In this document: in pieces, positions 8,895 to 52,241 of the stretch
Layout of the letters: the number at the start of each line of letters is the position of its first letter
Position numbering within the stretch: position 1 is the stretch's first letter
DNA from: Candidatus Kaiserbacteria bacterium
GTDB taxonomy: Bacteria > Patescibacteriota > Minisyncoccia > Phycocordibacterales > UBA918
NCBI GenBank assembly: GCA_019634005.1
Contig: JAHQWD010000003.1
Span: forward strand, 67,725-131,724
DNA: 64,000 nucleotides
Reading direction: 5' to 3'
The notes under the pieces: generated by a model
What the model was told of the DNA's origin: nothing
What the model saw: only the letters and a program-made list of their open reading frames with translations
The model's database searches: none
Position numbers and translations under genes: made by a program

Positions 8895-9476
8895 ATGATC
8901 ACCGTAGTTGGACTACAAAACCCAGGGGCAGAATATACAAACACTCGACATAATGTGGGAGAGATGGTCGTGCGTGCATTCCAAGAGAGACACAACCTTC
9001 CTTCCTTTGTTCCGTCATCACAATACGCAGGAGAAATCTCCGAAGGAGTGGTTGACGGACAAGAGGTACGACTTCTTCTCCCAACTACGTATATGAATAA
9101 AAGCGGAAGTGCGGTTAAGAAGGCACTTCATCTTCCCGAAGGTCTCATTGTTGTCCATGACGAACTGGCGCTCCCGCTTGGGGAATTTAAAATTGGATAC
9201 AACCAGGGAGCAGGGAGCCACAATGGCGTGCAATCTATTATTGATGCACTTGGCATGAAAGCGTTCACAAGACTTCGTGTTGGTATCTCACCAACTTCAT
9301 TCTTTGGAAATATGAGACCACCAAAAGGAGAGAGGCGAGCAAAGTTTGTATTGCAGACGTTTTCTAAGAAAGAGATGTCTACAGTTGAGGCAATGCTGCC
9401 GGAAGTACTTACTGCACTTGAGACAATACTTACACAGGGGAGAGAGAAGGCGATGAATCAGTTTAATGTGTCATGA
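8895..9476 (+). CDS. pth: Peptidyl-tRNA hydrolase
   Basis: N-terminal [18 protein letters not shown] and the HNG catalytic region (GAGSHNGV). 193 aa. Confidence 0.9.
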
Positions 9477-9964
9477 ATAAGACCAAAGGATTTACACTCA
9501 TAGAACTACTTGTTGTTATAGCGATTATAGGTATTTTGGCGAGTGTTGTTCTTGGTTCGTTGAATGCAGCACGCGGTAAAGCGAGAGATGCACGACGTGC
9601 TGCGGATATGTCACAAATTATGACAGCGCTCAATCTCTTCTATTCCGATTACGGCTGCCTACCTCGAACATCAGGGTCGTCCTGTGTTGGAGGGTATAGC
9701 GAATCCAATACTGGTGGCTGGGATGCAAGTGGAGAAGGAGATTTTATGACATTCCTCTCCGACAATGGCTACATGCCTTCAGTACCAGTCGATCCTATTA
9801 ATGATGGAGGCGGAGGAAGTTCTCATAGTTATCGATACTATTGTTACGTCTCTGGTCAGAGTTATACAGGGCTACATCTTGGGTACTGGGACGAGTCTGG
9901 GGCATATATACGCTACGCAACGTCAGGTGGCGCATGGACGACACAAGACTACTTGTGTAGATAA
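9473..9964 (+). CDS. Type IV pilin / pseudopilin with N-terminal prepilin cleavage-methylation motif
   Basis: [22 protein letters not shown] is a class III signal peptide with G-F-T-L-I-E. The C-terminal region is Gly/Ser-rich with Cys residues. Confidence 0.7.
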
Positions 9965-15830: not shown

Positions 15831-16382
15831 ATGGTTGTCATTCCCACAAAGACACGTTTTGTCCACCCTGACATTATCTGCTCACACTTTCATCTTCGAG
15901 AAGGTGATATTGTTGCGGATCTCGGAGCGGGAGTAGGCTTCTTCACACCCGCACTCTCACGGGCAGTTGGGGCATCCGGCCGAGTGTACGCATGTGAAAT
16001 CCAGAAGAATCTCCTTGAGAGACTGGGTGTTGAGGCGCGCGACCATCGGCTTCCAAATGTCGAACTTCTTTGGTGTGATCTGGAGAAGGAGGGAGGGACG
16101 GAGCTCGCTGATGGGATTATTGATACAGGTGTTATGATAAACACGTTTTTCCAGTTGGAAGATAAAAAGACTGCGATCAAAGAGATGGCACGCATTATAC
16201 GAAAGGGAGGGAAGTTGTTTCTTGTAGACTGGTCAGAGAGTTTTGATGGACTTGGTCCTCGTTCGGATCTTGTGGTACAGGAATCCGAGGCAAGGCGACT
16301 TTTTGAAGAAGGAGGTTTCCGCTTCAAACGGAATTTTCCCGCAGGGGAACATCATTATGGGTTAGCGTTTTGGCGAGATTGA
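15831..16382 (+). CDS. Class I SAM-dependent methyltransferase
   Basis: Motif I ADLGAGVGFF and an acidic motif II. Confidence 0.65.
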   Translation: MVVIPTKTRFVHPDIICSHFHLREGDIVADLGAGVGFFTPALSRAVGASGRVYACEIQKNLLERLGVEARDHRLPNVELLWCDLEKEGGTELADGIIDTGVMINTFFQLEDKKTAIKEMARIIRKGGKLFLVDWSESFDGLGPRSDLVVQESEARRLFEEGGFRFKRNFPAGEHHYGLAFWRD

Positions 16383-16385
16383 CCT

Positions 16386-17687
16386 ATGAATAATATACGA
16401 CCATTCCAGATTATCTTACTCGGTGTTTTCGGCCTTTTTGCTGTTTTCGGCCTTATATATTTTGGATTGTACAAGGGATCAGGAAGTGGAGACCCTGCAT
16501 ACGCAGGAGGTGTTGAGATATGGGGGACAGTTGATGGAGGAGCGGTACGCAGCGTTATTGAGGGGCTGACGAGTACTGTTGAAGGATTTGGCCAGGTGCG
16601 ATACATAGAGAAGGATCCTCAGAGTTTTAATTTAGAACTCCTGAATGCTATTGCAGAAGGGAGAGCTCCCGATCTTATTGTGCTTGCAAGTGATCAGATG
16701 CTTACACATCGTGCAAAGCTCTTTACGATGCCGTATGAGACGCTCTCAGAACGTACCTACAGAGATATCTATGTAGATGGTACAGACATATTCCTCTTTC
16801 CAGACGGTATTTATGGATTGCCGTTTGCAGTAGATCTACTTGTCATGTACTGGAATCGTGACATGTTTGCTTCATTTGGGATCCCAAATGCACCGAGAAC
16901 ATGGGAAACTCTTGTGAGCGAGGTGGTGCCAAAATTGACGCGTGTAGGGAGTGATCTTACGATCTCTCAGAGTGCAATTGCGTTTGGGGAGTATGCAAAC
17001 GTCTCTCATGCAAAAGAGATTCTTTCAATGCTCTTTCTTCAGTCTGGAACAAATATTGTGGAAGAGAAGAGCGGCTCCTATACTGTGACGATTGGAGAAC
17101 GAAATGAACAAGGACTTCCTCCAGCTACGGCAGCCCTTTCGTTCTACACACAATTTGCGCTTCCAACAAGCGCAACGTATTCATGGAATAGAGCGTTTGC
17201 TTCTGATCGAGCCGCCTTTACTGGAGGGGTTCTTGGTACGTATTTTGGCTTTGGCAGTGAGTACGATTCTATAGAACGTGCAAATCCTAACCTTAATCTC
17301 GATATTCAATCAGTACCACAGGGTGTGACAGCAAATACATATCGTGGGTACGGTATCTTCTATGCATTCTCCATACCGCGTGCGGCTGGAAATCCCGAAG
17401 GAGCGTACGCGGCGATGCAGGTGTTAACCGAACAAACCACTGCAAACAAATTGGCACAGGCATTGCGCATGGCTCCAGTGCATCGTGCGACTATCGCGGC
17501 AGGAACGACAGATGTAAATGATCAAGTGCTCTATCAAGCGGCGCTTATCTCTCATGGGTGGCTTGATCCAGATAGTGTGGGGAGCACAGAGGTCTTTAGA
17601 CTTATGGTGGAAGATGTCACCTCTGGGAGATCACGGGTGAGTGATGCTGTGGAGGACGCCATTGCTCGATTACGATTATTATTCTAG
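16386..17687 (+). CDS. Membrane-anchored extracellular solute-binding protein-like (SBP family 1-like)
   Basis: N-terminal TM anchor. Has the motif cluster DLIVLASDQ...DLLVMYWNRDMF...P.TWE typical of MalE-like binding proteins. Confidence 0.45.
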   Translation: MNNIRPFQIILLGVFGLFAVFGLIYFGLYKGSGSGDPAYAGGVEIWGTVDGGAVRSVIEGLTSTVEGFGQVRYIEKDPQSFNLELLNAIAEGRAPDLIVLASDQMLTHRAKLFTMPYETLSERTYRDIYVDGTDIFLFPDGIYGLPFAVDLLVMYWNRDMFASFGIPNAPRTWETLVSEVVPKLTRVGSDLTISQSAIAFGEYANVSHAKEILSMLFLQSGTNIVEEKSGSYTVTIGERNEQGLPPATAALSFYTQFALPTSATYSWNRAFASDRAAFTGGVLGTYFGFGSEYDSIERANPNLNLDIQSVPQGVTANTYRGYGIFYAFSIPRAAGNPEGAYAAMQVLTEQTTANKLAQALRMAPVHRATIAAGTTDVNDQVLYQAALISHGWLDPDSVGSTEVFRLMVEDVTSGRSRVSDAVEDAIARLRLLF

Positions 17688-17690
17688 GGT

Positions 17691-18218
17691 ATGCATATGA
17701 AACAAATTGGATTTTGGACAGTACTACTTACGGTTTTCTTTCTAGCACCGCAAGTTTCTTTTGCGCAGAGTTGGCTCACTGAAGATGAGAATCCGCCATT
17801 CACACGTTTTGAGAACCAAGAATCTGGTGATACTTCAGGAACAACGGTAGGTGGAAATCCTCCTGCTTCGGGTGAGGGCACCACAGTAGGTGGGAATCCT
17901 TCTGCTACAGGTGATGGTACTACAGTAGGTGGAAATCCTTCTGGTCAACCAGGTCGATTGTCAAACCCGCTTGGTGATGATACGAACTCTCTTCCAAAAT
18001 TCCTTGAATCCATTCTTGATATTATCCTTGTATTTGCCGTACCTGTCATTGTCTTCTTCATTATTTACGGTGGATTTCAGTTGGTAACAGCACGAGGGAA
18101 TGAGACGAAAATTAGTAATGCTCGGGCAACCATTACTTGGGCGGTTGTCGGTGGAGTCATCATTCTTGCTGCAGAACTCATTCTCAGTGTTATTGTAGCA
18201 ACTATAAATGCCTTGTAA
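17691..18218 (+). CDS. VirB2/TrbC-like mini-pilin paralog 1, with 3x G-T-T-V-G-G-N-P repeats
   Basis: Signal peptide (AQVSFA|QS), a repeat-bearing spacer, then two hydrophobic helices separated by a short basic loop (VFFIIYGGFQLVTARGNETK...), which is the VirB2/TrbC topology. Confidence 0.45.
   Translation: MHMKQIGFWTVLLTVFFLAPQVSFAQSWLTEDENPPFTRFENQESGDTSGTTVGGNPPASGEGTTVGGNPSATGDGTTVGGNPSGQPGRLSNPLGDDTNSLPKFLESILDIILVFAVPVIVFFIIYGGFQLVTARGNETKISNARATITWAVVGGVIILAAELILSVIVATINAL
17835..17950 (+). repeat. Tandem approx. 45-bp repeats (3 copies) encoding GTTVGGNP(S/P)A(S/T)G(E/D)
   Basis: Seen in sequence inside CDS 17691..18218. Confidence 0.6.
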
Positions 18219-18540
18219 TATGCGATATCTTCTTCTCTTTCTTCTCCCGACCTTTGCATACGCTGCGACATTTAAAGATATTGTCGGGGAAATTCTTGAG
18301 TTTAACCAATTACTTGTCGTCGTTATCTTTACGTTGGCATTTATTGTAACCATTTGGAAGATTGTCGATACGTGGATCATTCACTCGGGGGATCCAGAAT
18401 CAATCAAAAAAGGAAAAAAGACAATCATTATTGCAATTATCGTGCTCGTTATTATGTCAGGGTTATGGGGGATTCTTGAACTACTCACGAGCAGTTTCTT
18501 CTCGGCTGTTTCGGTGAACAATAGCTCTATTTCTATCTAA
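18208..18540 (+). CDS. VirB2/TrbC-like mini-pilin paralog 2
   Basis: Signal peptide, then two hydrophobic helices with a basic loop (HSGDPESIKKGKK). Start is probably the second Met at 18220. Confidence 0.45.
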   Translation: MPCNMRYLLLFLLPTFAYAATFKDIVGEILEFNQLLVVVIFTLAFIVTIWKIVDTWIIHSGDPESIKKGKKTIIIAIIVLVIMSGLWGILELLTSSFFSAVSVNNSSISI

Positions 18541-18623
18541 TCCACAGACCACTCGTCAATAGAGGGTATTTTAGGTACAATAGGGATACTGAACAACAGT
18601 TAGTTATAGGTATAAATAAATAT

Positions 18624-18986
18624 ATGAAATCTTTAGTCAAAATATTTTCCTTCTTGTTGGTGATTGCACCGGTGGTTGCGCAGGCACAGTTTGGAGGGAT
18701 AGACACATTTATCGGGAGAATAATCGAATTTATCGACACAACTCTCGTTCCTCTTGTGTTCGCTCTTGCGTTTATCGTATTCCTTTGGGGAGTCTTTACG
18801 TACTTCATTCGTGGTGGTAATGATCCTGAAAAACAAAAAGAGGGAAAGAACCTCATGCTCTACGGAATTGTTGGTTTTGTAATCATGGTTTCTGTGTGGG
18901 GTATTGTAAACCTTATTGCTAATGGTCTTGGGTATACTACCGAGCAAATCTACGTACTTCCTGACGCACCGTACACAAATCCGTAG
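18624..18986 (+). CDS. VirB2/TrbC-like mini-pilin paralog 3
   Basis: Signal peptide VVAQA|QF. Core FLWGVFTYFIRGGNDPEKQKEGKNLMLYGIVGFVIMVSVWGIV. Confidence 0.5.
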   Translation: MKSLVKIFSFLLVIAPVVAQAQFGGIDTFIGRIIEFIDTTLVPLVFALAFIVFLWGVFTYFIRGGNDPEKQKEGKNLMLYGIVGFVIMVSVWGIVNLIANGLGYTTEQIYVLPDAPYTNP

Positions 18987-19006
18987 TAATTGTTCTAATC
19001 GTTAGC

Positions 19007-19288
19007 ATGATTGCTTATGCACAAAGTGCAGAGGTACTTGCTCGTTCAGCGCTCGACCGCTTGAACGATGCGATACTCTTCCCGCTGATAACATTGCTCA
19101 CCTCTGTCGCAATTGTCATATTCCTCTGGGGCGCTTTTGAGTTCATTTCAAAAGCGGAGAGTGATGAGGCACACACAAACGGAAAGCGGCATATGCTGTG
19201 GGGTATCATTGGACTGTTTGTGATGCTCACTGCATATACAATCCTTCGTCTTGCTGCGAATACGGTCGGTGCACCAGTGCCGTCCTAG
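19007..19288 (+). CDS. VirB2/TrbC-like mini-pilin paralog 4
   Basis: Core FLWGAFEFISKAESDEAHTNGKRHMLWGIIGLFVMLTAY, the same architecture as paralog 3. Confidence 0.45.
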   Translation: MIAYAQSAEVLARSALDRLNDAILFPLITLLTSVAIVIFLWGAFEFISKAESDEAHTNGKRHMLWGIIGLFVMLTAYTILRLAANTVGAPVPS

Positions 19289-19301: not shown

Positions 19302-19345
19302 AAAAAAAGAGCGGACGTTCCCCGTAGGGAGCGTCCGCTTTTTCT
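19302..19345. terminator. Bidirectional intrinsic terminator between convergent genes (gagcggacgttcc/ggagcgtccgct, flanked by A-run and T-run)
   Basis: Seen in sequence. Confidence 0.55.
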
Positions 19346-19358
19346 AGTCGGAAGTTCG

Positions 19359-20300
19359 TCATGAGTAGTTGCACTCCTTGTACGGAAGGAGCTCAATAAC
19401 CACTTGTCGTTTCTGACCTGTTTTGTTGAACAGGAAGCCGAAACGGGCCTTGGCCCGCTCTCCCTCCAGCACGTCAGAGCCGATGTGTTCTTCATCGGCA
19501 CCGAAATACTTGAGACAGTATCCTTCTTTTATGAGGACGTAATCGGTGACCTCATGGGGCTCAAAGGCAAGTGTGAATTTGGCTGGTGGCTCGGTGAGCC
19601 CATTCAGCTGTTTCACGGTCAGGGGGGTGTCTGAAGCCTCTTCGGATGCTTTTTGCATCTCGGCGACAGCCTCTGCCACGGCTCTGTCAACCCGTCGGGC
19701 GACATATGCCCTGGTGACTGTCTGTTGAGTGTTCGAGGCAGCCTTTTCCTCTTCCAAGAATTCGGAGAAGGGGATAGTGCTCAAGATGTTGACGAAGATG
19801 GTGTAAACGGCGTAGGCCGTCACGACCCATTTCAGATACTTCTTGGATCCTTCGCCCAGCCAGATGGTGAGCAGGCCGAGAACGATCCCCATAAGAGCGA
19901 TTACCCAGAAGGCACCGGGATTTTCCTCAAACGACCAAGTCGACAAGACACTTGCCGAAAAGGTGAAGAAGAAGAGGATGCCCAGAGCTCCCTTGTAGAG
20001 GATCTGAGCACCTTCAACGGCGCCTTGGGTGATGTCCTCGTCATTCAGACCTTGGACAATCGCCCCAAGCCCCATTGCCGTGAAGACAATGGTGGTATTT
20101 GTCAGATGTAGCCCAAGGGCAATGAGCCCGATAAAGGATAGGGCTACATTGACACCCAGAAAGCCAGCCAGGTTGATGGACCACATGACGGTTGTTGCGA
20201 TCAGAGTGTAGAACGCAAACTTAAAGAGGATAAAACGTACATCCTCTCCCTTCTCGTGAGCGTATGCCCCGAGCTGATTTACTAAGTTTGTCATAGACAT
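19359..20300 (-). CDS. Hypothetical integral membrane protein (313 aa; 4-5 N-terminal TM helices plus a soluble C-terminal domain)
   Basis: Hydrophobicity pattern only. No motif recognised. Confidence 0.5.
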   Translation of the reverse strand: MSMTNLVNQLGAYAHEKGEDVRFILFKFAFYTLIATTVMWSINLAGFLGVNVALSFIGLIALGLHLTNTTIVFTAMGLGAIVQGLNDEDITQGAVEGAQILYKGALGILFFFTFSASVLSTWSFEENPGAFWVIALMGIVLGLLTIWLGEGSKKYLKWVVTAYAVYTIFVNILSTIPFSEFLEEEKAASNTQQTVTRAYVARRVDRAVAEAVAEMQKASEEASDTPLTVKQLNGLTEPPAKFTLAFEPHEVTDYVLIKEGYCLKYFGADEEHIGSDVLEGERAKARFGFLFNKTGQKRQVVIELLPYKECNYS

Positions 20301-20317
20301 GACTATTCCTTTCTAGT

Positions 20318-21124
20318 CTAGCCCCAGACAGCATTGAAAAACTTACGGAGAGGCCCGTGGTCTTTCTTGCTGTCTGCGATCTTTTGTTCGATTTGGTTGG
20401 CAAGACGATTAGTCGCCTTGTCATATCGTTGCGGCAATGACCGCACCGAGTTGATAGCTTTTGCCACCAAGTCTTTGGTCTTCTGATTCGGATGTATTGG
20501 AAGCAGGATACCTTGGGACTTGAATTGTTTTGCGAGTCTTTTATAACCCGCGAGTGGCGTAGGACTTTCTTTGATCGTCCTGATCACATATTCCATGAAG
20601 ATGACACCCTCGTGGACTTTTTCGGTCCGACGTGGCGGCTCCTTCATCTGGAAGTGGATGCTTTCGTTGCCGAACCTTGACTTCAACTCCGTCTGTACAT
20701 CGGCAGATTCCCTCGCCGTGACGGAGAAAGAAGAACCGTTACGTCCTTCCATACTGAAGGTCGCCTCAGCAACTTTTGGTTTGATTGTTCGGGGTCCTCG
20801 TTTCACCACAAACAGGCGAAACTCGTTCCAACAGAACAGATTGATCAGGTACTCCTCGAGGGTACCTCCCTTAAGCGATGCCCATTTGTGGAATTCCGCG
20901 AAGATGTCGAACGCATCTTCGAGCCCAGGTATCTCCGATACCTTTAGCATGATCGAGTTGAACTGCCGTTCATCCTCGCCACCACGGAGACCATAGACTC
21001 CTTTTGCAATTGCTGAGGCGTCATTGGCTGGTTTTTCCCCACGAAACGCAGAGAGAACATCAGCCGCGGAGTGCATATGGCTAAGAAGGCCCAGCATCTC
21101 ACCAATCTTGTCAGCTATTTTCAT
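20318..21124 (-). CDS. Hypothetical protein (268 aa)
   Basis: Clean ORF, co-oriented with and 17 nt from the previous gene. Confidence 0.5.
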   Translation of the reverse strand: MKIADKIGEMLGLLSHMHSAADVLSAFRGEKPANDASAIAKGVYGLRGGEDERQFNSIMLKVSEIPGLEDAFDIFAEFHKWASLKGGTLEEYLINLFCWNEFRLFVVKRGPRTIKPKVAEATFSMEGRNGSSFSVTARESADVQTELKSRFGNESIHFQMKEPPRRTEKVHEGVIFMEYVIRTIKESPTPLAGYKRLAKQFKSQGILLPIHPNQKTKDLVAKAINSVRSLPQRYDKATNRLANQIEQKIADSKKDHGPLRKFFNAVWG

Positions 21125-22715: not shown

Positions 22716-22805
22716 TGGTGCCGAGGGCGGGATTCGAACCCGCGCGAGCAAGGAATGCTCACGACATTTTAAGTGTCGCGTGTCTACCAACTCCACCACC
22801 TCGGC
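22716..22805 (-). tRNA. tRNA-Leu (anticodon UAA), long variable arm, CCA encoded
   Basis: Acceptor gccgagg/cctcggc, anticodon stem-loop cgaca-ctTAAaa-tgtcg, long extra arm, T-arm cgggttcgaatcccg. Confidence 0.8.
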
Positions 22806-22869
22806 ATGAGGCGCATAATAGCATAAAACATTTGTTCTGGAAGGTGCAAGATGCTACAGTATTCCACAC

Positions 22870-22944
22870 GTCCTGGTGGCGAAGTGGTAACGCTGAGGTC
22901 TGCAAAACCTCCATGCGCGGGTTCGATTCCCGCCCAGGACTCCA
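22870..22944 (+). tRNA. tRNA-Cys (anticodon GCA), CCA encoded
   Basis: Acceptor gtcctgg/ccaggac, anticodon loop ctGCAaa, T-arm gcggg-ttcgatt-cccgc. Confidence 0.8.
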
Positions 22945-22995
22945 CGTAAAGTGCTTGTTTTTACAAGCACTTTTTAGTACACTCTGGTCTGTTAC

Positions 22996-23068
22996 CCGCC
23001 CATAGCTCAGTTGGTAGAGCAGTTGCCTCTTAAGCAAATGGTCCTAGGTTCGAGTCCTAGTGGGCGGA
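22996..23068 (+). tRNA. tRNA-Lys (anticodon CUU), CCA not encoded
   Basis: Acceptor ccgccca/tgggcgg, D-arm tagctcagttggtagagc, anticodon loop ctCTTaa, T-arm ctagg-ttcgagt-cctag. Confidence 0.8.
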
Positions 23069-23102
23069 CAAAAGACACCAGTCATGGTGTATAATTGGGA
23101 CA

Positions 23103-23480
23103 ATGAAAAATATTTTCCTGAAGACATTCAAATGGATACTACTGACCATTGTTGCATCAGTAATTACTGTTATTGTGCAAGGTATTGTTGAGGAGCAGAA
23201 TCGTTTCAATGCATCAGCAGAGGCATATTTCTCATATGAAAAACTTTCCGAGGAAGAGATAGATGGTATGTATCGCACAGAGTTCCTTCTCATTCTCCGT
23301 GGGTTTGCACCACTTGCGGATACATTACAGACATTCGTATATCCAGGACGATATTGTAGTGTCCCAGAGATACGTCCTGAAGATCTAGAAAACGAATGGC
23401 ATTACGTATCTGTGTGCACGACAGACCTTCCAATCGCAGAGCGAGGAGCGCTCTTTCAGATTGTACAGGTGGCGAGGTAA
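23103..23480 (+). CDS. Hypothetical membrane-anchored protein (125 aa)
   Basis: N-terminal TM helix. Sits between tRNA-Lys and tRNA-Leu. Confidence 0.4.
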   Translation: MKNIFLKTFKWILLTIVASVITVIVQGIVEEQNRFNASAEAYFSYEKLSEEEIDGMYRTEFLLILRGFAPLADTLQTFVYPGRYCSVPEIRPEDLENEWHYVSVCTTDLPIAERGALFQIVQVAR

Positions 23481-23523
23481 CTTTCTGGAAATCATGGACA
23501 CAATAGTGTACACTCTAGTCCAC

Positions 23524-23607
23524 GCCGGGGTGGCGAAATGGTAGACGCGCTAGTCTTAGGAACTAGTGGAGCAATCCGTGCTGGTTCGAGTCCAGTTCCC
23601 GGCACCA
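23524..23607 (+). tRNA. tRNA-Leu (anticodon UAG), long variable arm, CCA encoded
   Basis: Acceptor gccgggg/tcccggc, anticodon stem-loop ctagt-ctTAGga-actag, T-arm ctggttcgagtccag. Confidence 0.8.
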
Positions 23608-30989: not shown

Positions 30990-31137
30990 TGGAAGACCTC
31001 TTTCAGGTTGTGGGCACGGCCCGTTGAAAAATCAACACATACAATACACTATAAACACTACATTGTCAATGTATCTCCTAAGTAAAATAAGGCCAAAAAC
31101 GGATTTAATTTCAAAAATCCCGTTTTGCCTTGTCTAG

Positions 31138-31220
31138 TGCGCCGAGTTGGATTCGAACCAACGTAGACCGAAGTCAGCGGATTTACAGTCCGCCGCATTT
31201 GACCACTCTGCCATCGACGC
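31138..31220 (-). tRNA. tRNA-Tyr (anticodon GUA), long variable arm, CCA not encoded
   Basis: Acceptor gcgtcga/tcggcgc, anticodon stem-loop gcgga-ctGTAaa-tccgc, extra arm, T-arm gttgg-ttcgaat-ccaac. Confidence 0.8.
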
Positions 31221-31277: not shown

Positions 31278-31874
31278 ATGATATGGATATCTATGAAATA
31301 CATAGTGCCGATTCTATTTTTTGTTCCGCAGGTTGTGGGCGCACAGGGTCTTGTACCTTGTGGTTTTGAGACAACGCCAGGTAATCCAGCTACATTTGTT
31401 CCGTGTCAGGCATGTCACTTGGTGCAACTGACAAGCAATACACTGACGCTATTGATACAGCTCGGTACAGTATTGGCAGTACTTATGATTGTGGTTGGAG
31501 GTTTCTATCTCCTTTCGTCTGGAGGAAGTGAGGTACAACGATCAAGAGGAAAACGGATCATTACGAATGTCATTATTGGGTTAGTAATTATGCTTACTGC
31601 ATGGTTGTTGGTAGATACGGTCTTCAAACTACTCTTGAGTGATGAGGCACAAAAGTTTGGTGTGTGGAATGAGATCCAATGTGTTGAAGGGAGTAGTAAT
31701 TCTGAATCCGGTGAAGGTGATGGTTGGTCAGATATTGGGAATGATATACAGTCTTGGCTTTTTGGGACTGATACTTCTAAGACAGAAGGAGATTCATCGG
31801 AAGGAAATGGAGGATCTGAGACAACTTCAACTGATGACATTCCTCGTATTGGAGATGGTGTGACTGATATCTAG
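31278..31874 (+). CDS. VirB2/TrbC-like mini-pilin paralog 5, with an acidic Gly/Ser/Glu-rich C-terminal extension
   Basis: Signal peptide VVGA|QG, a Cys-containing spacer, then two hydrophobic helices with a basic loop (SSGGSEVQRSRGKR). Lies between tRNA-Tyr and tRNA-Trp. Confidence 0.45.
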   Translation: MIWISMKYIVPILFFVPQVVGAQGLVPCGFETTPGNPATFVPCQACHLVQLTSNTLTLLIQLGTVLAVLMIVVGGFYLLSSGGSEVQRSRGKRIITNVIIGLVIMLTAWLLVDTVFKLLLSDEAQKFGVWNEIQCVEGSSNSESGEGDGWSDIGNDIQSWLFGTDTSKTEGDSSEGNGGSETTSTDDIPRIGDGVTDI

Positions 31875-31910
31875 AATTATTCTTCGAAGTGCGGTATATT
31901 CTAACTCCTG

Positions 31911-31982
31911 GGCCTATAGTTTAATTGGTAAAACGGCGGTCTCCAAAACCGCTGTTCTAGGTTCAAGTCCTAGTGGGCCCGC
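31911..31982 (+). tRNA. tRNA-Trp (anticodon CCA), 3' CCA not encoded
   Basis: Acceptor gggccta/tgggccc, anticodon stem-loop gcggt-ctCCAaa-accgc, T-arm ctagg-ttcaagt-cctag. Confidence 0.8.
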
Positions 31983-32043
31983 CCAATGAGACTTGAACCA
32001 CGGATTCCTTATTTCGTGGTTCAAGTAAAAAATATCTTCATAA

Positions 32044-40080: not shown

Positions 40081-40764
40081 CTAGGTCTTGGTATTTCTGT
40101 CAAATGATAGCGCATCTAAGATGTCGTCTGCACAGGTGACTGGGGTGGCTCCCAGTTTTAAAAATTGATGCGTACCGTGACTGTTCTTTGAAAAAATATC
40201 TCCTGGTACGACGAGTACGTCTCTGTTGTAGTCTGCGGCCATACGTGCGGTGATGAGCGTGCCAGATTTTTCTTCTGCCTCTATGATAAGCACCGCATGA
40301 GAAAGCCCTGCCATGATCCGATTTCGACGAGGAAAAGACCAACGGGTTGCTTTGAAGGTTGGCTCAAATTCTGAGAGAAGTGCTCCACCAGACTCTAGGA
40401 TTCGTTCAGCGAGTCTTCTGTTTGTTTTTGGGTAGAGTACGGAGTCATCAAGTCCACTGCCTGGCACGGCAATAGTATGGAGATTGTTTTGGAGTGCTGC
40501 TTCGTGTGCAAGTGCGTCAATACCAAGTGCTAATCCAGAGACAATACATATATTGTGTCCTCTCAGGTCTTGTATAAGCGTCTCTACGACGCGTCTTCCG
40601 TACTCGGTGTACTTCCGAGAACCAACGACTGCAAGATATGTGGTATCTGAAGGAGGAAGCTTTCCACGTACATAGAGTTGTTCTGGAGGATCTGGTATTT
40701 CACAGAGATATGGGGGACACTCTATAGTACGTATTGGAAAGAACATACCGAGAGTGTAACACAA
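40081..40764 (-). CDS. dprA: DNA processing protein DprA (Smf)
   Basis: DprA Rossmann pattern LAVVGSRKYTEYGRRV...IVSGLALGIDALAH. Has the conserved dprA-topA adjacency. Confidence 0.85.
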   Translation of the reverse strand: MCYTLGMFFPIRTIECPPYLCEIPDPPEQLYVRGKLPPSDTTYLAVVGSRKYTEYGRRVVETLIQDLRGHNICIVSGLALGIDALAHEAALQNNLHTIAVPGSGLDDSVLYPKTNRRLAERILESGGALLSEFEPTFKATRWSFPRRNRIMAGLSHAVLIIEAEEKSGTLITARMAADYNRDVLVVPGDIFSKNSHGTHQFLKLGATPVTCADDILDALSFDRNTKT

Positions 40765-49595: not shown

Positions 49596-52241
49596 ATGGC
49601 CGCAGACCCCATTGATGATATCGAAAAATGGTCCCAAGACCTTGTCCCTTGGAAACGAGACGTCTTGAGGCGACTAGCAACAGGCGCAGAGTTTTCTGAG
49701 GCTGACTACAGTTCGACGCTTTCAATGGTCAAAGAAATTGCAGGCTTTAAGCTCTCCTCCAAGCCACCGGCCGCCATACCTTTTACGAAAAGCCATTTTG
49801 CTGCAGGCGCTACTACACCACTTACCCTTAAGGGCATCACCAACATCCAGAACATCAATCAACTTACCGCTAATGCCCAGCTAGATTTTTGCCCTAAAGC
49901 ATTGACGATTATTTATGGTCGGAACGGAAGCGGAAAGAGTGGCTTTGCCCGCATCTTAAGGACTGCATGTCGGACGAGAATAGAGAACCCAGCAAAACTC
50001 AAAGTTCTATCTGACGTATATGGAGACAGCTCGGGCCCCCAAGCCGCTGATATCGTAATAGACAACGGTAGTGGTGACACATCAATAAAATGGACACCAG
50101 GCCAAACTGCCATCGCAGAGCTGATGCAAGTTGCGGTATTCGATACAGTCTCTGCACAACTGTATGTGGACAATGGAAATCAAATCCGTTTTCTCCCGTT
50201 CGGGCTAGCGTTGCCGCATAGGCTCAATACCGTATGTTTGCAGTTGAAAGAAATACTGGAGGCTGAGCGAAAATCTGAAGTTGGTAACAAGGTGAGTATG
50301 ACGGCAATTAACTTCGACGTCACGCAAGATACTAAGGCACAGAAATTTGAAAGATCGTTAAGTCAAGCTACTACTGATACCGCGATTGCTACAGCAGCAA
50401 AGTTTACCTCCGACGACGAAGCTCGGCTGGAAGAAATTCGGAAGGCTCTATCTGCAGGAGACGCTGCGCTTGCCGATCTGACGGCATTTGAGAAATGGTT
50501 AAGGGACTTAGCGACAGAATGCGAAGAAGCGGAAAAAGGATTCTCAGATAAAGAATTAAAGGCACTTGAAAAGATATACGAAGAGGCACGGTCTGCCCGT
50601 ACCGCGGCAACTGTTGCTGCAAAAGCAATGTTCACTGATGAGCCATTGCCCGGCGTGGGAAGCAAGAGCTGGAGAGCTCTTTGGCATGCTGCTCGCGATT
50701 TCTCTGTACAAGAAGCCTATGTTGACCGCGATTTTCCAATAACCCTTGAAGACGACGCTGCAGCGGCATGTGTACTGTGTCAACAGCCTTTAACTTCTGA
50801 TGCCTCTGCTCGCATGAAGCGCTTCCAGAAGTATTTAGACGACACACTCGGCGTGGCCGCTACCAAAGCTGAAGGAATTGTATCCGAAGCGCAGAAGAAC
50901 CTTAAGACGATTGAATTGCTGGAAGCGTCCGACTTTGAGGCTCGCGTCGAACAGGTAAGGAAACGAAACAATTCTCTCGCAGATGCGCTGGCAACTTTTA
51001 AAACCACGGTAAAGAAACGGAGAGCAATTGCGTCCTCTTACTTATCTGGTGAAGAGGCCGAAACCGCGCCATTGCTGGTGAGCGTTGTTAAAGCACTTAC
51101 AGAACTGCTACAAAAAATTCAGAAGGAGAAAGAAGCGCTAGAGAAAGCAAACAATGCCCCCGATCGGGCGCTACTTGTTGCGGAAAAAGCGGAGCTGGAA
51201 GATCTAAAAACACTCGCAGCGAATAAGGACCGCCTCACAACCCGACGAGACCTACTCCGCCTAGATCATGCATATGCCAAGGCACTTACTCAAGTTGGGA
51301 CTACGGGTATTACTCGGCGCGCAAACGATCTTATCGATACCCACCTTACAAGCGCGGTTGTAAAGCAGTTTGATACAGAGCGTGAACGTTTTGAAATCAT
51401 GCACCTTAAGATAGGTCTGGCTCGACGAAGTGGGCAAACAAAAGCAGAGTTTGATGTTAGCCCGCAGACCAAATTGACGAGGGTCACCTCCGAAATACTT
51501 AGTGAGGGAGAACAGCGGGCGTTGGCACTAGCTGGTTTTTTGACTGAAGTCGAATTGACTGATGGTAAAGGCCCAATTGTAATTGACGACCCAGTATCTT
51601 CGCTGGACCGAGATAGAAGTATCAAGGTTGCTGAACGAATTGCAGAAGAAGCGACTAAACGTCAGGTGATTGTCTTTACCCATGACATGGTCTTTTTCAA
51701 TGAGTTAAGCAAGGCTGCAGACTCGCTGGGTATTGAACCCGTAACCGTTGGCCTTTTCCGAGATAAGGACGCAGCAGGGAAAGTAGACCCAGCGGGGGTA
51801 TCTTGGAAGGGTCTAAATGTTTCCAAGCGCATAGGTAAAATTAAGAATGATTCTGCATCACTGGCCAAATTGTACAAGACGAGTCCTTCTGACTACGAGA
51901 TGCGAGTAAAGGGCCTGTATGGTCGATTACGCGACACCTATGAGCGCGCTGTTGAAGAGGTGATCTTTAACGATATCGTGCGCCGAGGAACGGATGTGAT
52001 CCAAACACAGTTGCTTCGGAAAGTACGTTTGTCTGATGGGCTAGCAATTCGCTTTTATGAAGGGATGACCAAGGCAAATACGCACAGTCATGACAATCCC
52101 GCTTCTGACACCGTGCCAGTCCCCACGCCAGACGAATTCAAAAATGATATCGCTGCTTTTGAAAAGTTGATTGTTGATCTCAAGGCAGAGGGTGTGGCTG
52201 CCGAGGCCGCACGACCTCAAATGAAACCCAAAAAGGATTAA
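49596..52241 (+). CDS. Rad50/RloC-like ABC ATPase with coiled-coil CxxC zinc hook and a C-terminal R-x3-E...H module (putative anticodon-nuclease-type defense protein)
   Basis: Walker A IIYGRNGSGKSGF (about aa 105). A roughly 500-aa insertion with heptad-like Ala/Glu/Lys-rich stretches. CVLC at about aa 392 in its middle. ABC signature LSEGEQRALALA, Walker B IVIDDPVSSLD, H-loop VIVFTHD. The C-terminal 190 aa contains GRLRDTYERAVEE and THSH. Confidence 0.6.
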   Translation: MAADPIDDIEKWSQDLVPWKRDVLRRLATGAEFSEADYSSTLSMVKEIAGFKLSSKPPAAIPFTKSHFAAGATTPLTLKGITNIQNINQLTANAQLDFCPKALTIIYGRNGSGKSGFARILRTACRTRIENPAKLKVLSDVYGDSSGPQAADIVIDNGSGDTSIKWTPGQTAIAELMQVAVFDTVSAQLYVDNGNQIRFLPFGLALPHRLNTVCLQLKEILEAERKSEVGNKVSMTAINFDVTQDTKAQKFERSLSQATTDTAIATAAKFTSDDEARLEEIRKALSAGDAALADLTAFEKWLRDLATECEEAEKGFSDKELKALEKIYEEARSARTAATVAAKAMFTDEPLPGVGSKSWRALWHAARDFSVQEAYVDRDFPITLEDDAAAACVLCQQPLTSDASARMKRFQKYLDDTLGVAATKAEGIVSEAQKNLKTIELLEASDFEARVEQVRKRNNSLADALATFKTTVKKRRAIASSYLSGEEAETAPLLVSVVKALTELLQKIQKEKEALEKANNAPDRALLVAEKAELEDLKTLAANKDRLTTRRDLLRLDHAYAKALTQVGTTGITRRANDLIDTHLTSAVVKQFDTERERFEIMHLKIGLARRSGQTKAEFDVSPQTKLTRVTSEILSEGEQRALALAGFLTEVELTDGKGPIVIDDPVSSLDRDRSIKVAERIAEEATKRQVIVFTHDMVFFNELSKAADSLGIEPVTVGLFRDKDAAGKVDPAGVSWKGLNVSKRIGKIKNDSASLAKLYKTSPSDYEMRVKGLYGRLRDTYERAVEEVIFNDIVRRGTDVIQTQLLRKVRLSDGLAIRFYEGMTKANTHSHDNPASDTVPVPTPDEFKNDIAAFEKLIVDLKAEGVAAEAARPQMKPKKD

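Follow-up and report, generated by a model that had tools for sequence, protein, structure and literature searches.

A large part of bacterial diversity is made up of Patescibacteria, whose way of life is attachment to host cells. A search of 3,035 of their genomes with the profiles PF04956 and PF18895 recovered 441 arrays of 2-11 genes for VirB2-like proteins, with a mean identity of 25% and a maximum of 54%, and host adaptation was suggested as the context for these arrays (Quinonero-Coronel et al. 2025, PMC12102498). In Southlakia epibionticum, transposon sequencing (Tn-seq) found the predicted pilins inside its type IV secretion system (T4SS) cluster to be essential (Wang et al. 2023, PMC10633639), and in Paceibacteria co-cultures the unknown extracellular genes with the highest expression include T4SS pilins (PMC10936435). 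In Anaplasma phagocytophilum and Bartonella, the multiple VirB2 copies are regarded as surface antigens that vary (cited in PMC12102498). Here we analyze a stretch of 64,000 nucleotides (the window; positions 67,725 to 131,724 of contig JAHQWD010000003.1, from a Candidatus Kaiserbacteria bacterium) that carries four consecutive genes for VirB2-like proteins (paralogs 1-4, 17691-19288) and a fifth one, paralog 5, at 31278..31874. NCBI already annotates paralog 3 (MBX2866718.1, an identical protein from Candidatus Kaiserbacteria bacterium, encoded on a 379,352-bp contig) and paralog 5 (MBX2866731.1) as 'pilin'; given this annotation and the published arrays, the locus is an instance of a known phenomenon. 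The pilin identity is right and the genes are real, but their annotation and a published description of the class were already in place; a T4SS with its pilin array is essential in the sole species tested, and the present locus adds nothing new on the family itself. Four features could not be found in the literature searched: the invariant coupling of such an array to genes for a methyltransferase and a MalE-like solute-binding protein (SBP), the distance of the array from virB4, the positional orthology of its members and the leaderless state of the last one.

Like the published arrays (PMC12102498), including the one in the SEML1_0006-0019 region of S. epibionticum (PMC10633639), the array in the window consists of chromosomal tandem genes of the PF18895/PF04956 type. 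By the published definition (PMC12102498), an array has at least two pilin genes, either in tandem or with a single non-pilin gene between them, and here four are consecutive; the divergence is likewise comparable, with 26% identity here against 25% there. Unlike those arrays, this one has no virB4 cluster nearby and is joined to a module of methyltransferase and MalE-like SBP genes. Further, the published arrays are most abundant in Microgenomatia and Saccharimonadia (PMC12102498), whereas the present one belongs to Paceibacteria (Kaiserbacteria). Three features go beyond the PF18895 norm, namely the repeat spacer of paralog 1, the Cys-containing segment and acidic tail of paralog 5, and the absence of a leader in paralog 4. 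Anaplasma phagocytophilum and Bartonella, which also depend on hosts, likewise have several divergent VirB2 copies in tandem; unlike those copies, the paralogs described here form orthologue groups whose positions are conserved across species.

The five genes can be firmly placed in a family of the Patescibacteria type (PF18895), and their products are predicted to be pilin-like proteins of the VirB2/TrbC superfamily. An open reading frame (ORF) check of the window recovered the four tandem genes and the fifth where they had been predicted, all on the + strand. PF18895 (T4SS_pilin) matches all five (E 8e-06 to 5e-12), with scores of 36.9, 26.3, 46.1, 34.5 and 42.8 bits for paralogs 1-5; four of the five are above the gathering cut-off of 26.6 bits, with paralog 2 falling 0.3 bits short. 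Against a family-specific hidden Markov model (HMM), for which 79 paralog 3 homologues were used, paralog 2 scores 70.8 bits (E 4.5e-21). These 79 homologues are up to 64% identical to paralog 3, and all but the weakest carry PF18895. When run on the window, whose six frames contain 836 ORFs, the family HMM retrieved exactly the five pilins (E 7e-54 to 1e-07), the next-best ORF appearing at E 0.17, and the census found no further members in the 64 kb; therefore, the pilin set is complete for the window and goes well past what chance would give. A separate group of database proteins of 230-606 amino acids (aa; P0084-P0095, P0159) shows 2-7 consecutive pilin-profile matches each, and these are either fused arrays or tandem genes merged by gene callers (e.g. 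in lineages that read UGA as sense).

Two-helix membrane proteins are prone to spurious matches, and a sequence search of the PDB with the family profile indeed returned only spurious membrane matches (FliL and TRPC6), and Pfam gave many weak ones. As regards the fold of solved pilin subunits (VirB2, TraA, TraM), Foldseek gave nothing below E 3, fold searches being non-specific in this case. All of this would fit the view that the five are unrelated small hydrophobic proteins drawn together by transmembrane composition alone. However, four of the five pass a curated Pfam cut-off, the family HMM leaves a gap of over six orders of magnitude between them and all the remaining ORFs of the window, and they share conserved features that are not hydrophobic, namely the A-x-AQ site, an NPL motif and a G-x-D/E...GK loop. 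Moreover, 40,148 cluster representatives match the profile (E <= 0.001), indicating a very large family. We therefore regard composition alone as effectively refuted and leave it almost no probability.

Comparison with other families brings out the place of these proteins among secreted subunits. The TrbC/VirB2 affinity suggested by the original prediction is supported by PF18895 and by sub-threshold matches to PF04956 (TrbC) in four of the five, and a profile-profile alignment with VirB2 is suggestive of it. The support from profiles is divided, in that PF18895 passes its cut-off in four paralogs but PF04956 in none (24.8 bits for paralog 1 as the best, 14.8-17.3 bits for the others and no match for paralog 2). 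An hhalign comparison of the family profile with Agrobacterium/Rhizobium VirB2, the references being annotated genes located between virB1 and virB3, gave a probability of 72.6% and E 3.2e-05 over 82 colinear columns, scores of a kind that membrane helices inflate. The colinearity spans the leader, the A-x-AQ cleavage site, helix 1, the loop and helix 2. The paralogs resemble VirB2 of A. tumefaciens and TrbC of RP4 (PF04956) in the predicted A-x-A cleavage before Q, the two helices and the short basic loop; unlike the reference VirB2 genes, they have no adjacent virB1, virB3 or virB4 and come from a monoderm. A further resemblance is to the Mbov_0395 family of Mycoplasma integrative and conjugative elements (ICEs; NF045849), also a two-helix, T4SS-associated protein of monoderms. 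All five match this model below its cut-off of 40 (30.0, 24.8, 34.6, 26.0 and 20.2 bits; E 1e-08 to 3e-04), and nearly the whole of its 80 positions is covered; in contrast to that family, scores stay at 20-35 bits and the genes are not on an ICE. Given these near-full-length matches, monoderm MPF_FATA-type elements may also carry VirB2-like proteins, which bears on the published question of the origin of the Patescibacteria pilins.

Type IV pilins (T4P) are likewise a small, secreted, filament-forming class, but the paralogs lack the G/FxxxE class III leader and are hairpins rather than one N-terminal helix with a globular head. A Pfam scan detected N_methyl (PF07963), the class III leader of type IV pilins, in none of the five, while the ORF at 9473-9964 (+) carries this motif, in agreement with the earlier distinction between the two kinds of pilin. 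The same window also encodes DprA (40081-40764, -) besides this type IV pilin; thus, the genome carries competence and T4P components that are separate from the VirB2-like genes.

A hydropathy scan of the paralogs revealed a signal-like N-terminal segment followed by two hydrophobic helices around a short Lys/Arg-containing loop, the exception being paralog 4, which has no leader. In an AlphaFold2 model of paralog 3 (120 aa, 18624..18986, +; predicted local distance difference test score 83.5), a helical hairpin lies behind a leader helix, with helices at residues 2-23, 26-63 and 68-101; the modelled topology is leader, helix, short basic loop, helix. The architecture formerly ascribed to all copies is accordingly present in all five as far as the two helices and the loop are concerned, but the signal peptide is missing in paralog 4. 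Two motifs listed as shared by every copy did not hold up, since both FLWG(A/V)F and the helix-2 motif (MLWGI/MLYGI) occur only in paralogs 3 and 4. Paralog 1 (175 aa, 17691..18218, +) combines a signal peptide, a Gly/Thr/Pro repeat spacer, the conserved NPL motif and the two-helix core. Its three GTTVGGNP units, noticed earlier, correspond to a 39-nucleotide (nt) tandem repeat of 2.5 copies at 17847..17943 (+) that encodes GTTVGGNPxxxGx (Tandem Repeats Finder score 145, 86% matches). Paralog 2 (110 aa, 18208..18540, +) is recognized by the family HMM and lies just under the PF18895 cut-off. Paralog 5 (198 aa, 31278..31874, +) has a signal peptide, a Cys-containing LVPCG segment, the two-helix core and an acidic Gly/Ser/Asp tail, the last of which, as foreseen, is visible in the translation at the C-terminus. 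It also lies between two tRNA genes as described before, namely tRNA-Tyr (31137-31220, -) and tRNA-Trp (31909-31985, +). The start codons of the pilin ORFs are uncertain by a few codons, with other gene calls placing them at 17697 for paralog 1, 18220 for paralog 2 and, by NCBI, 31293 for paralog 5.

Paralog 4 (93 aa, 19007..19288, +) begins at the ATG at 19007 with MIAYAQS, in which an AxA remnant of the signal peptide is kept, and the hydropathy scan shows no N-terminal hydrophobic segment. Its orthologues in more than 20 species start with M-x-x-Y/H-A and have stop codons a few codons upstream; hence, the leaderless last gene is a conserved trait. In frame upstream of the paralog 4 ATG lies RTVHKSVVIVLIVS (18965-19006), which resembles a signal-peptide core. 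A hidden or lost leader at this place (KSVVIVLIVS, which aligns to the leader in the HMM) was considered and rejected, as the stretch offers no ATG, GTG or TTG, with GTA at 18971. Given that the stretch is missing upstream of the paralog 4 orthologues, it is probably a coincidence or a remnant.

The paralogs of the window have mutual core identities of 15.5-36.3%, in keeping with the divergence noted for the copies. Each of them has a median identity of 34-41% with its best match in other species, and the mean within-array identity in related loci is 26.2% (723 pairs). These best matches are also found at corresponding places: first in the array in 65 of 81 loci for paralog 1, second or in the middle for paralog 2, penultimate in 62 of 80 for paralog 3 and last in 69 of 78 for paralog 4. 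As orthologues are closer than paralogs of the same genome and have kept their positions, the duplications predate the radiation of the clade and the copies have differentiated. Within this set, paralog 3 is the most conserved member and a likely candidate for the major subunit. The orthologues at the first position all possess the leader, a species-specific low-complexity spacer rich in Gly, Thr, Pro and Ser, the NPL motif and the two-helix core; they range from 63 to 338 aa, and their spacers are unrelated between species; short repeats are frequent in these proteins. The strong variation reported for the N-terminal spacers is thus genuine in the first gene, where the spacer is hypervariable, but is confined to that gene, and this spacer is the only part of the array that evolves truly fast.

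These data also bear on the proposal, made in the original prediction, that the paralogs reflect antigenic or receptor diversification. Under this hypothesis each copy could stand in for any other as the major pilin, and the set would be maintained for antigenic or receptor variation, a role proposed for VirB2 in Anaplasma and Bartonella and an idea also raised in PMC12102498. It can draw on the low identity between paralogs (15-36%), on the repetitive spacer of paralog 1, which differs wholly between species and accompanies the range of orthologue lengths given above, and on array sizes that vary from 2 to 9 across species. However, a positional orthologue of each paralog is present in most of about 80 species and is closer than its neighbors in the array, one member is constitutively leaderless across species, and no repeats or recombination substrates were seen other than the 39-nt repeat. 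These features argue for old, fixed and differentiated subunits, which in turn makes a heteromeric structure likelier than an antigenic repertoire; we consider the latter improbable.

The four-gene array is packed behind two other genes on the same strand. The first codes for a class I S-adenosylmethionine-dependent methyltransferase (183 aa, 15831..16382, +; Methyltransf_11/25/31 and Ubie_methyltran matches on an identical gene), and the second for a membrane-anchored family-1 (MalE-like, sugar-type) SBP homologue (433 aa, 16386..17687, +), which NCBI names 'extracellular solute-binding protein' (MBX2866715.1). The spacing is operon-like, with 3 nt between the methyltransferase and SBP genes and 3 nt between the latter and paralog 1; paralogs 1 and 2 overlap by 11 nt, and gaps of 83 nt and 20 nt separate paralogs 2 and 3 and paralogs 3 and 4, respectively. 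A promoter-like site (18553-18581) lies inside the 83-nt gap upstream of paralog 3. Downstream of paralog 4 is a G+C-rich hairpin of 17 bp with A-run and T-run flanks (19306..19343, not assigned to a strand), a likely bidirectional intrinsic terminator, with a minimum free energy of -31.2 kcal/mol, a z-score of -4.87 and none of 200 shuffles equally stable. By this arrangement the pilin genes are predicted to form an operon-like unit with the methyltransferase and SBP genes that is closed by a strong terminator, and the same hairpin is likely to close the convergent gene as well.

When genomes were scanned with the SBP alignment, one per species, relatives turned up in at least 582 of them, and the best 80 loci were analyzed. 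A pilin HMM, built iteratively and trained on these same loci, counted 2-9 pilin ORFs right behind the SBP gene in each of the 69 loci whose downstream sequence exceeds 3.5 kb; the window and a small number of redundant loci are among these 69. The mode is four genes (35 loci), followed by five (16), six (10), three and seven (3 each), and two and nine (1 each). In all 84 related loci with room for it, the methyltransferase gene immediately precedes the SBP gene; the distance from the methyltransferase stop to the SBP stop is 1283-1589 nt throughout, against 567-3532 nt for the spacing between gyrA and the methyltransferase gene. In seven related contigs the order is gyrA, the methyltransferase gene, a gene for an SBP-like protein of about 430 aa and then 4-7 pilin genes, and a lone pilin gene lies after ClpB, at a position equivalent to that of paralog 5. 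The loci L004 and L005 have a pilin ORF at this place, and a word search with paralog 5 returned two matches, with one other homologue of 42% identity in the same synteny. The SBP orthologues are 32-40% identical over their full length and match PF01547/PF13416, and their family profile matches solved sugar-binding proteins of ATP-binding cassette (ABC) importers with E-values down to 1.9e-18; no ABC permease gene was found next to the SBP gene in the gene context of the window or the related contigs examined. The module has been inherited vertically in at least 80 species of Paceibacteria, and each paralog has kept its position in the array. Many records titled 'uncultured Candidatus Saccharibacteria bacterium' (L010, L011, L013, L016 and others) display the Kaiserbacteria-type gyrA-methyltransferase-SBP-pilin synteny with SBP identities of 45-52%; the organism given for them is probably a generic label or a mistaken one.

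We propose that the most likely mechanism is Sec-dependent insertion of these proteins followed by assembly, through a distant VirB4, into a heteromeric surface filament. Paralogs 1, 2, 3 and 5 would be exported by Sec and cleaved after A-x-A, while paralog 4 would insert into the membrane without a leader. All five would form helical hairpins in the cytoplasmic membrane, their Lys/Arg loop facing inward and their two ends outward, and a VirB4-type T4SS whose genes lie at another place of the chromosome would extract and polymerize them. The product would be a pilus-like or envelope-spanning filament that touches the host cell, in which the four array members would act as differentiated rather than interchangeable subunits, with paralog 3 likely the major one and paralog 1 displaying its fast-evolving repeat spacer on the exterior. 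The SBP, predicted to be co-transcribed, would be an accessory. The link to host contact, already made in the original prediction, agrees with proposals in the literature for Patescibacteria. Taken as a whole, from pilin-like proteins through leader-directed insertion to distant-VirB4 assembly of a host-contacting heteromeric filament, we give this explanation a little better than an even chance.

Several observations weigh against such a filament. To our knowledge, no filament has ever been shown for a Patescibacteria VirB2-like protein. PF04956 remains below its gathering cut-off throughout (24.8 against 27.9 bits at best), and the PDB search with the family profile returned no solved pilin. 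VirB4, VirB6, VirD4, TrsD and PrgI-like proteins were not found among the ORFs of at least 150 aa in the window, nor was there a VirB4-like large ORF within 8 kb of the operon in the 80 related species. Of six related genomes with the operon, two were also scored as lacking VirB4, both of them RIF metagenome-assembled genomes that are possibly incomplete (Table S1, PMC12102498). In favor of the filament, VirB4 was scored present in the other four (C7867-001, -006, -007 and CG10_..._47_16; Table S1, PMC12102498). Every window ORF of at least 500 aa could be assigned to a non-T4SS family, and the surroundings of the array are of a housekeeping kind (GyrA, IF-2, ClpB, ParB, RelA/SpoT, TopA, DprA, FtsZ/FtsA and SerRS). 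None of the large unassigned ORFs flanking the related loci looks like VirB4; the ones that were read by eye match UvrB, a P-type ATPase, RNase J, PheT, PBP2 and SPFH-like membrane proteins, and no VirB4 was seen in the contexts of the seven homologues on long contigs, all of which are syntenic. In Paceibacteria, virB4 is located near dnaA/dnaN (PMC12102498). Pilin genes lie within 20 coding sequences (CDS) of virB4 in 1135 of 1948 assemblies, so that proximity is not obligatory (PMC12102498); inside the 64 kb of the window, no virB4 lies within 20 CDS of the array.

This distance from virB4 could alternatively mean that the module works without a T4SS, the VirB2-like hairpins and the membrane-anchored sugar-type SBP together forming a membrane or envelope complex that needs no VirB4 and could serve as a device for capture or uptake of host oligosaccharides, or as an envelope scaffold. 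The junction between the SBP and pilin genes is invariant in every related locus examined, and that between the methyltransferase and SBP genes is kept in 84 of 84 while the link to gyrA is often broken. In the same direction point the absence of virB4 from the neighborhood of the operon in the loci examined, the two related genomes scored VirB4-negative, and an SBP that is clearly homologous to sugar ABC binding proteins yet has no adjacent ABC permease. On the other hand, in Saccharibacteria the T4SS cluster contains homologous arrays, and cluster and arrays are both essential, pilin genes are near virB4 in more than half of the surveyed assemblies (the 1135 of 1948 above), and VirB4 is scored in most of the related genomes; moreover, conserved order in tiny genomes may be frozen synteny rather than functional coupling. 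On balance, we think a T4SS-independent complex unlikely, and retain assembly by a distant VirB4 as the preferred explanation.

A bolder interpretation is that the methyltransferase, the MalE-like SBP and the array constitute one functional unit that hundreds of Paceibacteria species have inherited vertically and that is physically uncoupled from virB4, in which the SBP is a dedicated partner of the filament and the direction is uptake, not export. The SBP might then be a receptor at the tip or base, or an element for substrate capture, and the structure would import host-derived molecules rather than serve export. If true, the idea of a 'T4SS pilus as import conduit', so far review speculation, would gain its first evidence from genomes, but we hold this interpretation to be quite doubtful. 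Independently of this interpretation, the locus offers comparative leads for Paceibacteria: ancient position-specific subunits, one of them leaderless and another with a fast-evolving surface spacer, in an array that is always in a predicted operon with a sugar-type SBP and a methyltransferase and far from virB4. These leads narrow the targets for modelling, proteomics and cryo-electron tomography.

On the far side of the terminator, a convergent pair of genes on the - strand (19359-21124) encodes a 313-aa protein, in whose N-terminal part several hydrophobic segments can be seen by eye, and a 268-aa protein. These genes (19359-20300 and 20318-21124) were considered as VirB6-like partners and rejected, in that they match no Pfam family and are kept in only about 6 of 80 species, and they do not belong to the core module. 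At the same position, other species carry a membrane protein and a Band_7/SPFH-like gene. Elsewhere in the window, an 881-aa ATPase of the AAA_13/AAA_21/SMC_N type (49596-52241, +; PF13166, 93.9 bits) is encoded just after tRNA-Gln, an architecture that we take to be common in abortive-infection or anticodon-nuclease-like defence proteins. Finally, four tRNA genes are clustered within 900 nt at 22716-23607, namely Leu-taa (-) and Cys, Lys and Leu-tag (+).

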